Part shown: piece by piece, positions 8,286 to 58,412 of the stretch
How positions within the stretch are numbered: position 1 is the stretch's first letter
Layout of the letters: every line of letters begins with the position of its first letter
Assembly (NCBI GenBank): GCA_030265585.1
Contig: JAJDGJ010000001.1
Location: 2,388 to 66,387, forward strand
Direction of reading: 5' to 3'
Source of the DNA: Erysipelotrichaceae bacterium OttesenSCG-928-M19
GTDB taxonomy: Bacteria; Bacillota_I; Bacilli_A; JAJDGJ01
Length of the DNA stretch: 64,000 nucleotides
Translations under genes and position numbers: made by a program
The notes under the pieces: generated by a model
Database searches by the model: none
Told to the model about the DNA's origin: nothing
Seen by the model: only the letters and a program-made list of their open reading frames with translations

Positions 8286-8489
8286 ATGAAAAGAAAAGTA
8301 ATGTCACCTTTTACAATAATTGGTTTAGTAATGATTATTGGCTATTTAATCTATGAAGCCATTTTTAAAGCCATACCAGATTCAATTGGTATTCCACTAC
8401 TAATTATTGCCATTATCTTTATTGTGGTTGGTAATGTCCTTGTTAGAGTTCACAATAAGAAAATAGATGATAATAATAAATATGAATAG
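8286..8489 (+). CDS. Small 2-TM membrane protein
   Basis: RBS AAGGAGGT, two hydrophobic helices, own TGnTATAAT upstream, terminator downstream. Confidence 0.7.
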   Translation: MKRKVMSPFTIIGLVMIIGYLIYEAIFKAIPDSIGIPLLIIAIIFIVVGNVLVRVHNKKIDDNNKYE

Positions 8490-51587: not shown

Positions 51588-52502
51588 TTATTTTTGAACA
51601 GTAAAGACTGATAAACATAATGTTTTAAATAATTCAGCATTGACAACCAGAGTTAAATCTATTGTTAGTACTAAATCATTATGATTGTTATAAAAATCAA
51701 TATACTCACTAATATAGTATTTATCATTAGCATCATGAGCCATTCTTACCTTAATATAATCACCATCATTAATACTAGCAACACGATATTTATTATGGTA
51801 AAGACTATCATTTGTTATTACTAAACGATCAATTTCAAAATCACCATAAGTATTATTATAATCTTTAAAAGTTGCTTCAAATTTCTTTAACGCTGCATTA
51901 TAATCATCAATAGTATATTCTTTATCTTTACCTAAAGATAAATAACGAAATCTTACCCCCTGCGAGCTAGTCATTTTACCCACAGCACGTTGTGATTTTA
52001 TTTTTGCATACGCAGTATTAATATCTTTGATCAAGACAATACTTGATTCCTTAGTTTTTGGATTTTTCAATGTTGAAGTAATTGTCTCCCAAGTCTCATT
52101 TTTATGAAAACGAAAAGCTAAAGCATCTTGCATCCCATAAGTTATTTCAGGAATACTACGATAATTAAACATTTCATCAATTTGTTTTAAAGCAAACTCA
52201 TGTTCCACATAGTTATTAACACAAAATTTAATTACTTCACCATCAAAACGAACATTCTTTCTTCTATTAACAAGCTTTTTTATTATAAATAATACTAGTG
52301 CTATTACAAAAATAGTAATTGCTACATATTTTATTAAACTATTGTATGAAGTATAGTAATTTAAAATATTAAAATGTTGCAATGAAAAAACAAGTGCTCC
52401 TAAAAAAGCAATCAGTAAAAATAATTTCGCAAAGAAACTAATAATCTTAACTCTCAAAGCAACCTTATCATAATAAATATTCATAATTATCATCACTCCC
52501 AA
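51588..52502 (-). CDS. Hypothetical membrane protein (2 N-terminal TM)
   Basis: Long ORF, two hydrophobic helices, closely spaced before the LtaS-family gene. Confidence 0.6.
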   Translation of the reverse strand: MGVMIIMNIYYDKVALRVKIISFFAKLFLLIAFLGALVFSLQHFNILNYYTSYNSLIKYVAITIFVIALVLFIIKKLVNRRKNVRFDGEVIKFCVNNYVEHEFALKQIDEMFNYRSIPEITYGMQDALAFRFHKNETWETITSTLKNPKTKESSIVLIKDINTAYAKIKSQRAVGKMTSSQGVRFRYLSLGKDKEYTIDDYNAALKKFEATFKDYNNTYGDFEIDRLVITNDSLYHNKYRVASINDGDYIKVRMAHDANDKYYISEYIDFYNNHNDLVLTIDLTLVVNAELFKTLCLSVFTVQK

Positions 52503-52633: not shown

Positions 52634-53389
52634 TTAAAAACTAAATTCCTTATTATTGAAATCCTCAATAAAATTAATGACATCATCATTAATTGATAAA
52701 TCAAGATCTTGCATTTTTCTATCTATTTCTACTAGCATCTCTGTTGTTAAATTACGATCTAAATATGGGAATAAAATATTATCTTCCTTATAAATATGAT
52801 CTTTCAACATTAAGCAATATTCAGTAATTAATTGTGAAATCTCTTTAACATCACTTGAACTAACTAGCTTTGAGCGATACTCTCGACTTTGTTCATGTTC
52901 TTGATACATAGCCTTTAAAATATCATTTTTTTCAAATAGATAGAACAACATATCTTCTTCTTTACCATGATGAAAATCATCTGCATAATATTTAAAAAAG
53001 TAGAGTAACTTTTCTACCTCCTGGGCATACTTTATCAGAAAGTTAGGTTGTCTAATAATATATTCTGCTATATAAACTAATTCAGTTATCTTGCGATGCT
53101 CCTCAATTAACATTTCTACAATCGCACTATACTTATCTTTTTTAGTTAATGGAGTAAAGACTTTAATTTCTTTAGTTTTTTGAGTAACCAAGTCATTTAA
53201 ATTCTCAAACATCGCTATTTGATCACCACTAGAAAAATTATGGATCTCAAATAAATCTTTTAAGAGACAAGTTCCCACACTACAATCAACACAGAAGATT
53301 TCGTTTTTTTCAAGAAAGTCTCTAGTAATAGGATATTCATTAATAACTTCATTAATCGGCATATTCAGATTAAGCACTGATTTCACCAC
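52634..53389 (-). CDS. Hemerythrin-domain protein with N-terminal DUF1858/ScdA-like domain
   Basis: INEVINEYP..CVDCSVGTC; EH..HHGKEE..EH..HIYKEDNILFP. Confidence 0.85.
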   Translation of the reverse strand: MVKSVLNLNMPINEVINEYPITRDFLEKNEIFCVDCSVGTCLLKDLFEIHNFSSGDQIAMFENLNDLVTQKTKEIKVFTPLTKKDKYSAIVEMLIEEHRKITELVYIAEYIIRQPNFLIKYAQEVEKLLYFFKYYADDFHHGKEEDMLFYLFEKNDILKAMYQEHEQSREYRSKLVSSSDVKEISQLITEYCLMLKDHIYKEDNILFPYLDRNLTTEMLVEIDRKMQDLDLSINDDVINFIEDFNNKEFSF

Positions 53390-53738
53390 CTAAAGTAATA
53401 ACATAAGTTTCTAATTCGATGTCCTTATCAGCATTTTTTATGGCTCGTCGTGTTGCATCTTCAATACCCATACAACATGGTACTTCCATACGTACAACAA
53501 CTATTTTCTTAATATCATTATTACTAATTATTTCAGTTAATTTATTTGAATAATCAATATCATCTAATTTAGGACAACCAATAATTGTAACCTTATCTTT
53601 AATAAATTTATCATGAAAATCTTTAAAGGCATAGGCACAACAATCAGCTGCTATTAATAAGGTAGCTTGATCAAACGATTGATGTTGAAAGTCAATTAAT
53701 TTAATTTGAATTGGCCATTGTTTTAATTCTGATTTCAT
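53370..53738 (-). CDS. Stand-alone C-terminal domain of the hcp-associated Fe-S protein
   Basis: SELKQWPIQIKL, LLIAADC, IGCPKLD, RMEVPCC; lacks the usual N-terminal 4Fe-4S ferredoxin domain. Confidence 0.75.
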   Translation of the reverse strand: MKSELKQWPIQIKLIDFQHQSFDQATLLIAADCCAYAFKDFHDKFIKDKVTIIGCPKLDDIDYSNKLTEIISNNDIKKIVVVRMEVPCCMGIEDATRRAIKNADKDIELETYVITLGGEISA

Positions 53739-53799
53739 TATTATCTCACTCTTTTCTTTTATTATTAAATATAGTATACTACAAATAATAACTTATTAA

Positions 53800-53815
53800 T
53801 GTTGCAATTGCAACG
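53800..53815. promoter_or_regulatory. Palindromic Crp/Fnr (HcpR-type) operator
   Basis: TGTTGC-AATT-GCAACG centred at -41.5 relative to the minus-strand TATACT -10 (53778-53773); abuts the regulator RBS. Confidence 0.75.
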
Positions 53816-53820
53816 AAAGG

Positions 53821-54483
53821 GTGATGATTATGTTATTAAATAGCTTATTTAATAATAATGAGCTTTTTACAAATATTAATTTATCGACAAGGAATAAACT
53901 TGGTGAATATTTTGAAATAATAAAAGTTTCAAAAAATCAAATTATCTTTAATGAGGGTGATTGCCTTAAGAGAATTTATTTTGTTGTTGAAGGCCTTGTT
54001 GAAATATCGAAATATGATCTTGATGGTAATAAAAACATTGTCGCTTTAATAGAGACAAATGATCTTTTTGCGGAATCAGTTGCTTTAGCTACTGATACAA
54101 TCTCACCCTATCAAACAATGAGTTTAGTTGATTCAACTATCGCTACTTTGACAATTGCTAACTTGATGCAACTAGTACAATTAGAAAATCAAATCTCAAT
54201 TAATTTATTAAAAATACTAGCCACTAAAAACACTTATTTAACTTTTAAGATCGATTGTCTATCGCAAGTTAGTATTAAAGAAAAAGTCTTTGAATTATTA
54301 AGATATTACCATCTTAAACAACAACGTAGCAGGATAACACTACCTTTTAATAAAAGTCAACTTGCTGAGTTTCTTTGTGTAAACCGTTCTGCTCTATCAA
54401 GAGTTCTAACACAAATGGAACAAGAGGATATTTTTAGCTATCATAATAAAACCTATACTCTTAATCCATTTTATTTTAATTAG
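53821..54483 (+). CDS. Crp/Fnr family transcriptional regulator (HcpR-like)
   Basis: cNMP-binding-like domain (IFNEGD..LFAE), HTH LPFNKSQLAEFLCVNRSALSRVL. Confidence 0.9.
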   Translation: MMIMLLNSLFNNNELFTNINLSTRNKLGEYFEIIKVSKNQIIFNEGDCLKRIYFVVEGLVEISKYDLDGNKNIVALIETNDLFAESVALATDTISPYQTMSLVDSTIATLTIANLMQLVQLENQISINLLKILATKNTYLTFKIDCLSQVSIKEKVFELLRYYHLKQQRSRITLPFNKSQLAEFLCVNRSALSRVLTQMEQEDIFSYHNKTYTLNPFYFN

Positions 54484-54574
54484 AATAGATTGTTTTAAAG
54501 TCTCATTATGATATAATATTTCAAAATATATTACTTAATTTATTTTATAGTCTTATTTAGGAAAGGAGTTAGTT

Positions 54575-55525
54575 ATGAAAAATAGAATTAGTATTAATAA
54601 TATTGAAGAGGCAGCTAGAATAATTGATCCAATTTTTCTAAATACGCCACAATATGAAGTTGCAGCCATTAATAAAATGTTTGATAATTCGATTCTCTTT
54701 AAAATTGAAACCTTAAATCCTATTAGAAGTTTTAAGGGGCGCGGCACTTCTTACTATGCCTCTAAACTTAAAAAAGATGATACAATAGTGGTTGCTAGTG
54801 CAGGTAATTTAGGTCAAGCTTTAGCTTATGTATGTCAAAAAAATGGTATGAATGCTATTGTTTTTGCAGCAAAGAATGCTAATGAGTTTAAAATAAAACA
54901 AATGAGATTACTAAATGCTGATGTAAGATTAGTAGGCAAGGATTTTGATGAAGCCAAAGAAGTAGCTGCTGAGTTTGCTAAAAAAAACAACTATCAATTA
55001 TTAGTAGATAGCTTAGATGTTGAAACCTGTGAAGGAGCAGGCACGATTGCTAAAGAGCTTATTGCTGAACATCAAAACATTGATACTGTTTTAGTTGCTT
55101 TAGGAAATGGTGCTATGTTAACTGGAATCGGAACCTATTTTAAAGAATATTCACCGCAAACAAAAGTGATCGGTGTTGCAGCTAAAGGCGCACCTGCAAT
55201 GGCTGATTCATTTCTCCAAAAGAAAGTTATTGAATATCCTAGTTATTCAACTATAGCTGATGGTATTGCAGGAAGAACTTGCTTCAAAGAATGTCTTGCT
55301 GATATGGAACTCGTTGTTGATGATGTTATTAAAGTTAGCGATGAGACAATGATTGAGGCAATGAAAATCATTCACGAAAAGCTTGGTCTTGTCGTTGAGG
55401 CATCAGGTGCTATTTGTCTTGGTGCTATCCTTGATAATCCAGAACACTATAAACATAAAAAAGTTGCTGTTATTGTTTGTGGTAGTAATCTAAATCCAGA
55501 ACAAATAAATACCTATCTACTCTAA
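54575..55525 (+). CDS. PLP-dependent threonine/serine dehydratase-like enzyme (fold type II)
   Basis: KIETLNPIRSFKGRG, ASAGNLGQ, GNG, TIADGI, EASGA, CGSN. Confidence 0.85.
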   Translation: MKNRISINNIEEAARIIDPIFLNTPQYEVAAINKMFDNSILFKIETLNPIRSFKGRGTSYYASKLKKDDTIVVASAGNLGQALAYVCQKNGMNAIVFAAKNANEFKIKQMRLLNADVRLVGKDFDEAKEVAAEFAKKNNYQLLVDSLDVETCEGAGTIAKELIAEHQNIDTVLVALGNGAMLTGIGTYFKEYSPQTKVIGVAAKGAPAMADSFLQKKVIEYPSYSTIADGIAGRTCFKECLADMELVVDDVIKVSDETMIEAMKIIHEKLGLVVEASGAICLGAILDNPEHYKHKKVAVIVCGSNLNPEQINTYLL

Positions 55526-55544
55526 AATAAAACCTCAAAGTTAC

Positions 55545-56549
55545 TTAACTACGAGGTTTTTCTTCAATTAATAAATATTTACGATTTTTATTTACTCCTT
55601 TAGCACTTAAAATTCCTAAACTAACAAACTTGCTTAAATACCGTCTAATAGTTGAAGGACTTCTTCCACTAAGTTGGGCTGCTTTGGAGTTAGATATTTC
55701 ATTATTATCTTTTAAAAATGGATATATTTCATAAAAAAAAGCTAATTCTTTACTCGTTAATTTATCACTTAACGATAGTTTTCCGTTATCACTATTTTTA
55801 TCTATACAATATTTCGTTACTATCTCATGAATAGCTTCTAACATAAACTCAATAAACATTGTTGCATTATTTTCTTTATTTCCAATACTTAACATTTCAT
55901 AGTATTTTAATTGATTTTCATATACAATAGTTTCAACCGGTATCCATTCAAAAATAGAATGCCACTTTGCTAAAATTAAATTTTGCCACAAACGACCCAT
56001 TCGTCCATTTCCATCTTCAAAAGGATGAATCATCTCAATTTCAAAATGAATAAGACAACTCTTAATTAATTCGGGCATTTCATCATTTTTTAAACATTCA
56101 AATAATTCACTCACCAGTTTATTAATATATTGTGGTCTAGCACCAATATGAACAACTCTACCACTTTCATCATAAACACCAACATCCTTATTTCTAAAAG
56201 ATCCACTTTCTTCAACTAAATCCTTTGTTATTAATTTATGAATTGTTAAAAAATCGTCTATTGAATAAGGATCCATTTTAAAAGCTAACTCATATGCCTC
56301 ATATGCATTCTTAACCTCACAAATTTCTTTTGGTGCTCCTATAATTTTTTTACCATTAATAATATTTGTTACCTGTTCAATTGACAGTGTATTATTTTCA
56401 ATTGCTAAAGATGACTGGATTGAATAAATTCGATTATTTCTTCTTAATAATAAATTTCTTTCTTTCTCTAATTCTAATTCTGTTAGCTTTTGTGATATTT
56501 CAATTATCAAATTTAACATATTACTTGTTATCGAAAACGGGGTTATCAT
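55545..56549 (-). CDS. Fic-domain protein with C-terminal winged HTH
   Basis: SSLAIENN inhibitory-type motif, canonical HPFEDGNGRMGR, C-term SNSKAAQLSGRSPSTIRRYL..GIL...G. Confidence 0.92.
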   Translation of the reverse strand: MITPFSITSNMLNLIIEISQKLTELELEKERNLLLRRNNRIYSIQSSLAIENNTLSIEQVTNIINGKKIIGAPKEICEVKNAYEAYELAFKMDPYSIDDFLTIHKLITKDLVEESGSFRNKDVGVYDESGRVVHIGARPQYINKLVSELFECLKNDEMPELIKSCLIHFEIEMIHPFEDGNGRMGRLWQNLILAKWHSIFEWIPVETIVYENQLKYYEMLSIGNKENNATMFIEFMLEAIHEIVTKYCIDKNSDNGKLSLSDKLTSKELAFFYEIYPFLKDNNEISNSKAAQLSGRSPSTIRRYLSKFVSLGILSAKGVNKNRKYLLIEEKPRS

Positions 56550-56577
56550 AATACTACCTCCAATCTTATTTATCTAT

Positions 56578-56606
56578 ATTATATCAAAAACCATACTTTT
56601 CATCAA
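56578..56606 (-). promoter_or_regulatory. Sigma-A promoter of the fic gene
   Basis: TTGATG-17 nt-TATAAT with TG extension; RBS GGAGGT downstream. Confidence 0.7.
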
Positions 56607-56610
56607 CAAA

Positions 56611-56646
56611 CTGAGCGATAAATTGAGCGATAAATTGAGCGATAAA
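56611..56646 (+). repeat. Tandem 12-bp repeat x3 (YTGAGCGATAAA)
   Basis: CTGAGCGATAAA TTGAGCGATAAA TTGAGCGATAAA read directly; immediately upstream of the fic -35. Confidence 0.95.
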
Positions 56647-56686
56647 AAACAGTACCCTAACTTTAATTTAGTCGTACTGTTTTTTA
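56645..56686 (-). terminator. Terminator after the pck-like gene
   Basis: AAAAAACAGTAC..GTACTGTTTTTT inverted repeat. Confidence 0.7.
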
Positions 56687-56687
56687 C

Positions 56688-58412
56688 TTATTTATTTAAA
56701 AACTTCAATAATTCAATAGCTGCTGCTTTAGGGCCACTTGTTTCATAGCCTTTAATACCTAATTTAGTTTTTAATTGTCCTACTCTAATACCTTGATCAA
56801 AGAACATCTTAAAATATTTATCTATTAAAGGATCTGTTTGTTCTTGACGTTGTACCGGTCCAAAAGGATTCGCAAAATATGATTTAACTAAACCAACTTC
56901 TTGCGTTGTTCCTTTCGCAAGTCTTGCCCCATCAATAAATACTTGTTTAGCAGTAGCTAAATCATTAAAGATTTCAACTGGTTTATTATCATCATCATAA
57001 TTATTCGCATATAAGAATAAATCAATTTCATAACCTTTAGTTATCTCTTCATAAGTTGCTACTGGAATAACAATACGGGCATTAATTTTATCTGGATTCA
57101 TAAAAATTGAACGATCTATTGTTCGATAAGCATAACCAGTATCTAAGTCATCCAAGCGAACAAAAGCTCCTATTTCTGTCCCGTAAGCTTTTATCTTATC
57201 ATCTTCATCAAAGATAATTCCCATATCATCAAAAATAATCTTAATATCTCTAATTCCATTATCTTCTAATGTTCTTAATGCTTCCAAAGTCTCTGATTTT
57301 CCTGCTCCACTATCACCCATGATAACAATATTTTTAGTCTCATTGTTATCCATTGTTATTACAGCCATTGCACCATGAATTGGTAATCCACCCTGATTAA
57401 TTCCTTTAACATTATGCAATGTCAAAATCATTTTCTTCATATAGCCAAAATAATCAAATTCATCACTATATGAAGCATAACCGACAAACAAATCATTATC
57501 ACTATCATGGTAGAAACAAGTCTTTTCAACTTCATCTTTAACTCCAAAAACATAAATCATATCAGGATCACTAAATTTAACAGTATCTAAATCAGCCAAT
57601 TCAAAAAGGTTTGCTAATGTAACACCCATTGACATAAAATCTTTATGAAAATAAATCAAAGCAAAGAACTTACCTACTTTAGCTGGATAACAAAGAAAAT
57701 CGTTTTTATCCATTTCAACATCTTTAATTGGATTTTCAAATACTTCTTTAAAGATACCATCCCTTGTATTACGACGAGGATAAGTAATGAATGGTGGATG
57801 AAGAATAATTGCTTCAATAATAGGAATTGGTCGTAAAACCTCATAAATCCCTTGCTCACAATTCAAACGATATTCATTAACAACAATTCCTGCATTTACA
57901 CCAGCAATCAACTGACGATATACTCTGTTTTTCTTACCCATGATTGTTTCTGATACTTTACGATAAGTTTCCAAAATCAATGACTCAAAATCACTATGTG
58001 ACTGAATAAACTGAGCATTTTGAATTCCTTTTTGTGATTTATTATTATAGACTAAAGCATATCTTTCTAAAGAACGCCAATAGTTATACATTGTTTCAAC
58101 AAATTCTAACAAACTATCTTTAGCTTTAATATATGCAATATAATCCTTGTGAACTTTTTTAACTTCATCCAGATCCATAACTAATAGTAATTTGAACATC
58201 GTTACTAATTCATCAACTAAAGTACTATCATCAGGTTCAATTTTATTTAAAGCATAGTATAATGGTTTTCCTTTTCTTTTTAAATATAATAGATGTACTT
58301 CAACAACTTTCTTAAAGCCGCGACTATCTAACAACTCCACACTTGAAGTACAATAATACTTTGTAAAGTTTAAAACTGCATTTGTATGACTAATTGTAAA
58401 TGATTTTGCCAT
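56688..58412 (-). CDS. Phosphoenolpyruvate carboxykinase-like protein (about 580-aa Firmicute/spirochaete type)
   Basis: YFGYMKKMILTLHN, LPIHGAM, GDSGAGKSE P-loop, IFDDMG, GTEIGAFVRLDDL, FANPFGP. Confidence 0.75.
   Translation of the reverse strand: MAKSFTISHTNAVLNFTKYYCTSSVELLDSRGFKKVVEVHLLYLKRKGKPLYYALNKIEPDDSTLVDELVTMFKLLLVMDLDEVKKVHKDYIAYIKAKDSLLEFVETMYNYWRSLERYALVYNNKSQKGIQNAQFIQSHSDFESLILETYRKVSETIMGKKNRVYRQLIAGVNAGIVVNEYRLNCEQGIYEVLRPIPIIEAIILHPPFITYPRRNTRDGIFKEVFENPIKDVEMDKNDFLCYPAKVGKFFALIYFHKDFMSMGVTLANLFELADLDTVKFSDPDMIYVFGVKDEVEKTCFYHDSDNDLFVGYASYSDEFDYFGYMKKMILTLHNVKGINQGGLPIHGAMAVITMDNNETKNIVIMGDSGAGKSETLEALRTLEDNGIRDIKIIFDDMGIIFDEDDKIKAYGTEIGAFVRLDDLDTGYAYRTIDRSIFMNPDKINARIVIPVATYEEITKGYEIDLFLYANNYDDDNKPVEIFNDLATAKQVFIDGARLAKGTTQEVGLVKSYFANPFGPVQRQEQTDPLIDKYFKMFFDQGIRVGQLKTKLGIKGYETSGPKAAAIELLKFLNK

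Follow-up and report, generated by a model that had tools for sequence, protein, structure and literature searches.

The window, that is, the whole 64,000-nucleotide stretch of DNA analysed here, carries on its minus strand a fic gene (55545..56549) encoding a 334-aa protein that combines a class II Fic domain with a winged helix-turn-helix (wHTH) at its C terminus. The Fic domain is recognised by Pfam PF02661 (E 1.9e-19; 70.7 bits against a cut-off of 24), and its catalytic motif HPFEDGNGRMGR (residues 175-186; 55992..56027, minus strand) is intact and has the form HxFx(D/E)GNGRxxR taken as the criterion for class II Fic proteins. The N-terminal S47-L-A-I-E51-N52 (56394..56411, minus strand) matches the class II inhibitory-helix motif; S47, L48, I50 and E51 are invariant in 42 homologs. 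The motif definition was drawn in part from the paper on CbFic2 (PMC10628234). Judged by these motifs, the window protein is a class II Fic.

The wHTH (residues ~266-327; 55569..55754, minus strand), which we place in class A, is matched by Pfam HTH_24 (E 1.4e-4) at 21.8 bits, just below the cut-off of 21.9, and the structure model (pLDDT 88 over the whole model) shows helices at 266-282, 287-294 and 298-310 together with wing strands. The Fic-like_C domain (PF21247) present in class B is absent from the Pfam matches of the window protein, and a profile comparison of the class A and class B wHTH returned a probability of 0.5%. The closest structure is PDB 4RGL (E 5.6e-64 by sequence), followed by SoFic, CccR and CbFic2. 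The protein is not a SoFic equivalog, since it scores 53.8 bits against the cut-off of 550 of NF046030, although the PADLOC SoFic model still matches it (E 4.9e-42).

Upstream of fic, the window encodes a 574-aa P-loop protein (56688-58412) that has only weak PEPCK matches (NF006821, 26.6 bits against 369) and is 71-87% conserved across family relatives. This PEPCK-like gene was located in four of five family relatives, in none of them with fic beside it, and in G001 and G005 it adjoins a homolog of the window gene at 51588-52502. Between these two genes the window (52634-56650) carries a hemerythrin-like gene, a small Cys-rich gene (both labels assigned by reading), Crp/Fnr, PALP and fic; because the two flanking genes are adjacent in G001 and G005, fic lies in a lineage-specific block. 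Its closest relatives belong to other groups. No second class A wHTH gene beyond fic and no class B match was found in the genome of the window (assembly 62% complete), so that no regulon partner is seen in this assembly.

Three tandem 12-bp units, in order CTGAGCGATAAA, TTGAGCGATAAA and TTGAGCGATAAA, occupy positions 56611..56646 of the plus strand and form a predicted operator with the core TGAGCGATAAA that is inverted relative to fic and whose motif recurs upstream of class A homologs. The sequence agrees with the preliminary description, which had placed these 12-mers upstream of the fic -35 box and read them as three times LSDK on the plus strand. Only two period-12 arrays were found in the 1.12-Mb assembly, one of them the fic promoter array; the other (G000:C18:5373-5420) codes for an Ala-Ala-Glu-Gly repeat and is unrelated to the fic-promoter motif. 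The array ends 4 bp from a predicted -35 box, TTGATG (56601..56606), which is followed after 17 bp by a predicted extended -10 box, TATAAT (56578..56583), both assigned on the minus strand by consensus match only, and by an RBS-like GGAGG (56557..56561, minus strand). A terminator-like hairpin closing the upstream gene (56642..56687, minus strand; -17 kcal/mol, z -5.5, 0/200 shuffles) has a T-run that overlaps the outermost array copy, and it folds although the consensus terminator scan lists none.

Within fic, the linker in front of the wHTH (55749..55808, minus strand) holds decayed in-register copies of the predicted operator unit, CIDK, NSDN, (GKLS), LSDK and LTSK, which align with the intact xSDK arrays of three close homologs (L002-L004). 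The 12-bp register first proposed for it (NSDN at 55796-55785, GKLS, LSDK at 55772-55761 encoded as TTA AGT GAT AAA, and LTSK at 55760-55749) was confirmed from the sequence, as were the two synonymous third-position differences by which the best copy, the LSDK 12-mer (55761-55772), departs from the array unit in a 10/12 match. This synonymy is partly forced: two of the repeat's three forward frames are interrupted by stops, so that any copy translated in this orientation has to read xSDK. The preliminary description had taken register, position and synonymy as arguments against chance. A single 10/12 match is weak: of 16171 genome segments of linker size (69 nt), 147 (0.9%) agree with the array unit at 10/12 or better on one strand or the other, and 7 exact copies of the coding 12-mer are present in the assembly. 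The best 12-mer match between the linker and the upstream 150 nt (11/12) exceeds every same-gene control window (p 0.019). A repeat detector blind to the motif calls no array here, which is why the window linker is counted as decayed, and the internal copy, which departs from the 11-base core at 2 positions where the adjoining copies do so at 4, may no longer work. In the predicted structure, residues 252-258 of the linker have a pLDDT below 50 and LSDK adopts a short helix beside the wHTH. Taken alone, the linker match thus goes only modestly beyond chance, and it is the matching arrays of the homologs that make it real.

For the comparison, 232 loci were reduced to 155 at tblastn E < 1e-30, to 133 by requiring a complete gene preceded by 150 nt or more of sequence, and to 67, window included, by a filter at < 85% identity. 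By their C-terminal domain these fall into A1 (20), A2 (15), B (28, with PF21247) and C (4). To them were added 24 full-length non-Fic genes, chosen by hand among the loci that searches with the wHTH alone had returned (9 out of 29 and 15 out of 30), with N-terminal DeoR-like matches, Fic genes, fragments and one near-duplicate left out; SLFN_AlbA_2 is present in each of the 14 that were checked. The total is 91 wHTH-tailed genes, 67 Fic and 24 non-Fic (mostly Schlafen/AlbA_2). In a wHTH-only word search with 42 candidates, the query alone was recovered.

Across the 91 loci, the blind detector, which misses the two-unit sites of A2, found 35 with an upstream array (controls 13/257) and 31 with a linker array (controls 2/290); 6 loci have arrays at both sites, 29 have the upstream array alone, 25 the linker array alone, and 31 have none. 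No class B gene has arrays at both sites (0/28 Fic, 0/9 non-Fic). Upstream copies are spaced by 12 bp (19), 11 bp (10) or 13 bp (1) and occur in both orientations. An upstream ORF ends within 40 nt in 5/21 linker-only genes versus 0/27 upstream-only genes, a comparison that is partly circular because an upstream array needs room.

Several loci deserve separate mention. The longest promoter array seen, six reverse copies of the 12-bp class A unit, lies upstream of L146. Five AlbA_2-type genes that have no linker repeats (L263, L264, L282, L286 and L287) have upstream repeat motifs of their own, often reverse and then forward copies (L287 by eye). Frame breaks inside the class B linker array split the wHTH from the N-terminal part in L254 and L178, by slippage, pseudogene formation or assembly error, and L259 and L268 consist of the array and a class B wHTH only in open frames of 73-75 aa, either fragments or stand-alone repressors.

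The link between the two sites is clearest in L001, L002, L003 and L004, the closest homologs (57-62% identical to the window Fic), whose linkers hold intact xSDK arrays (MSDK three times in L002, VSDK three times in L004) that agree in 15-16 of 16 bases with the DNA upstream of the same gene, which leads us to reject pure chance. The A2 linkers likewise mirror their own two-unit upstream site at 14-15/16 bases. Variant units recur at both sites of one locus, namely ATCGAT (L001), ACCGAT (L086), ACCGAA (L082) and AGCGATG (A2). The best 12-mer shared by the linker and its own upstream DNA exceeds all same-gene controls in 8/20 A1, 5/15 A2, 0/28 B and 0/4 C genes, and a 16-mer version does so in 11/20 A1 and 8/15 A2, some of these matches, the window's included, lying off the motif. 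A rank test was less favourable: among 35 upstream regions, a linker's own gave the sole best match in 1/24 cases and had at most two rivals in 3/24, and for the window linker 7 of 34 other upstream regions tied with or beat its own. By this test, covariation separates lineages better than single loci, and fine covariation is modest.

Array and linker copy are inverted relative to each other in the window, and the preliminary description had also considered inversion of the ~850-bp segment between them, or the use of the array as a template that rewrites the linker. Neither idea was borne out, and we regard this explanation as exceedingly improbable. The inverted arrangement is shared by L001, whereas the upstream copies are direct relative to the linker in L002-L004, and orientation is not conserved among the 35 class A loci (12 have forward copies alone, 5 reverse copies alone, 11 have copies in both orientations and 7 have no copy). 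Among 155 loci, the wHTH is in the same frame as the Fic core in 145, in another frame in 3, without match in 7 and on the opposite strand in 0, and we reject inversion of the inverton or shufflon type on these two grounds. In addition, the homology in the window spans just 10-12 bp and is imperfect, and a reading of the ORFs between 48 and 64 kb showed no recombinase. In favour of rewriting, the variable first bases agree between promoter and linker in L001-L004, so that occasional copying between the sites may have taken place.

Which motif is repeated depends on the wHTH. AGYGATRW occurs at least twice upstream of 9/20 A1, 2/15 A2 and 0/28 B genes and CAAGAWA at least twice upstream of 6/28 B and 0/35 A genes, both motifs having been chosen after the data were seen, and CAAG or GATA cores are also found in the linkers of Schlafen/AlbA_2-HATPase_c_4 proteins with the corresponding wHTH class. 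By this distribution, the repeat motif tracks the wHTH class and not the enzyme domain.

Codon choice in the linkers bears on whether the DNA or the peptide is conserved. Serine codons of linker SD dipeptides are AGY in 28/29 cases against 10.2 expected from the gene's own usage, Asp is GAT in 45/50 (32.4 expected), the third base of T/P/I codons is C in 20/28 (8.4 expected) and class B linker Gln is CAA in 20/23 (14.0 expected), an excess that is overstated because neither related loci nor the copies within one tandem array count as independent; with one codon per locus it is 13/14 against 4.9. The SD dipeptides of the Fic core, which served as control, show a mild excess of AGY (15/28 against 9.6) and GAT at 20/28 against 18.7. 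The constraint holds across proteins that are just 40-60% identical. Exceptions are L006 (CAG in 3/3 units), L278 (TCC, 12/18 bp spacing) and L283 (15 bp spacing), and the 15- and 18-bp spacings do not fit one helical phase. Four AlbA_2 linkers repeat one DNA motif at 10-14 bp spacing in two alternating frames (L285 with 6 copies at 13/14 bp, L289 with 5, L280 with 4, L281 with 4 at 10-11 bp), which translate as SGDK/AAIK, as IVDK/SLIK or, in L281, as no peptide repeat. Such two-frame repeats are predicted by a DNA site and not by a peptide function, and on these sequence patterns the conserved entity is the DNA motif rather than the encoded peptide.

The same data decide against the proposal that the tetrapeptide helps the wHTH to read the very DNA that encodes it, in a code whose peptide and target would diversify together. 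Covariation between peptide and upstream unit, as anticipated in the preliminary description, is indeed seen in L001, L002-L004, L082, L086 and A2, and the modelled LSDK helix beside the wHTH would suit a role in DNA reading. However, 29 of the 91 loci have an upstream array without a linker array, no class B Fic has both, one motif is read in two frames, and constrained synonymous sites are unexpected from a function at the peptide level. We therefore reject a peptide-DNA code, which appears highly improbable. What stands of the original idea is the operator, for which position, class-specific motifs and the precedents of CccR and SoFic speak; the coupling would be from DNA to DNA, not from peptide to DNA.

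The reading that we favour, as probably correct on the basis of sequence comparison, is that the promoter repeats serve as an autorepression operator for the wHTH, that the LSDK 12-mer is a second, now decayed copy of this operator and that the tetrapeptide is a by-product of the DNA site. Its status as a by-product would follow from the LSDK 12-mer being a decayed copy of the operator motif, and the site would read xSDK because its units are spaced by 12 bp (or by distances that add up to a multiple of 3) and have one frame free of stops. The Fic protein, probably as a dimer, would bind the 12-bp repeats through its C-terminal wHTH, and copies bound at the promoter would block RNA polymerase and thereby repress the protein's own promoter. 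Intact linker copies could halt elongation as a roadblock immediately ahead of the part that encodes the wHTH, or could anchor a loop, and roadblock or loop would limit how strongly a potentially toxic AMP transferase is expressed. In the window genome the promoter array may carry most or all of the control. Such control of dose would be useful, since Sofic is described as an anti-phage toxin in one report (PMC12249575).

Several observations are at odds with autorepression: the array lies upstream of, and not on, the -35 box, a position that activators use too, and 31/91 loci have no detectable array. The modest fine covariation, the departures of L006, L278 and L283, tandem motifs away from any wHTH gene and the high-affinity binding of random DNA by CbFic2 (PMC10628234) also count against it. 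That the array-bound protein activates, or that the linker array is an internal promoter or start for a stand-alone wHTH, nevertheless seems very unlikely. In favour of such a start, class A units begin with NTG codons, the A2 copy contains TTGATG, and three short, fragment-like wHTH-only ORFs exist (L254, L259 and L268), but the copies overlap the -35 box or spacer in L003, L005, L086 and most A2 loci, and CccR represses (PMC9755527).

Another explanation accepts the promoter array as a real operator but regards the linker copies as non-functional relics of a fusion of operator plus wHTH, in which slippage varies the copy number and linker variation is tolerated. The decayed linker of the window, the 4-residue indels by which relatives at 80-85% identity differ, the occurrence of SD[KINE] in only 37/120 homolog linkers and the confinement of class B Fic linker repeats to 7 genes of one clade (support 84, quick tree) would all agree with it. 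Relics would hardly be expected to keep their synonymous constraint over such distances between proteins, to be the only array in 25/91 loci, to retain the DNA motif while the peptide changes as in the two-frame repeats, or to mirror the upstream site as the A2 linkers do, and we consider this explanation unlikely.

The tandem motif also occurs away from wHTH genes. A DNA-first scan of viral contigs gave 10 matches, all 10 without an adjoining wHTH gene (ORFs judged by reading); at about position 1500, the phage genes L233, L234 and L236 start with 2-3 MSDK repeats made of the same DNA unit with no wHTH nearby. The same type of scan matched 3 of 351 genomes, of which one was already known and two (L306 and L307) are without a class A wHTH gene. 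In genome G547, where the best wHTH match has E 2.5e-5 and no class A wHTH was found, a class A site with two reverse and two forward copies and a TATAAT precedes a methionine aminopeptidase-like gene, flanked by the duplicated 3' end of a Fic gene with an N-terminal HTH and by one further motif copy (L316:7248-7370 and 8303-8376 together); this site is possibly an orphan operator.

A wider proposal is offered tentatively, as something that falls short of being probable: operator array and wHTH may form a portable, self-limiting C-terminal cassette, in which linkers reading xSDK, xTDI, TPQV, TDQV or SGDK/AAIK would be functional translated operators. Fic and Schlafen/AlbA_2 toxic or defence genes could then throttle their own transcription by roadblock or looping wherever they have landed, even without a promoter of their own, with copy-number slippage tuning the effect and the site shifting between promoter and linker across lineages. 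By its decayed linker, the window is a worn example of this putative general arrangement. Self-repression by Fic-wHTH proteins is already known, and no description of operator arrays inside the linker-coding part of Fic or AlbA_2 genes was found in the literature searched, which mostly excluded subscription journals; new would be tandem operator arrays that are translated as a linker, are common to Fic and Schlafen/AlbA_2 and alternate between promoter and linker. If true, this would account for the tetrapeptide repeats before the C-terminal wHTH in many Fic and Schlafen/AlbA_2 proteins, would make the binding site of an uncharacterised wHTH readable from its own gene, would provide a clear bacterial case of one sequence being both code and operator, would suggest how solitary toxic or defence genes set their dose after horizontal transfer, and would supply a motif-level hypothesis for the promoter binding of SoFic, which was left unmapped.

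Auxiliary operators such as lac O2 are regulator sites downstream of the promoter that act by looping or roadblock, and C.Kpn2I reportedly exerts a roadblock from a site in such a position as well (PMC6237814). Unlike either, the arrays described here would be tandem, lie inside the regulator's own coding sequence, be translated as a tetrapeptide-repeat linker and span several wHTH lineages and two enzyme families. Among Fic proteins, Dde_2494 (PDB 4RGL) is the closest solved structure (Foldseek rank 1, 34%), with a sequence match over residues 4-246 that covers the Fic core only. CbFic2 is, like the window protein, a class II Fic with a C-terminal HTH, and its activity is tuned by DNA binding, but in contrast to the predicted class A operator the accessible part of its description reports high-affinity binding to random DNA and no specific site (PMC10628234). 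SoFic shares the class II Fic domain and the wHTH and binds, as a dimer, the first 100 bp before its own start, while the main text of that study maps no binding motif and speaks of no repeat, operator, linker or intragenic site in this sense (10.64898/2026.07.09.737422). CccR of Yersinia pseudotuberculosis, whose structure (PDB 7XUX) matches that of the window protein at 18% structural-alignment identity, likewise joins an N-terminal Fic domain to a C-terminal HTH and, as a dimer, represses its own promoter through this HTH (PMC9755527). According to the available part of that paper, which mentions no intragenic copy, its operator consists of two 10-bp boxes in inverted arrangement, 26 bp apart (PMC9755527). 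The fic locus of the window also has a repeated site at its own promoter, but unlike this spaced inverted pair it is tandem, and the class A sites in general are tandem 11-12-bp arrays accompanied by coding copies.
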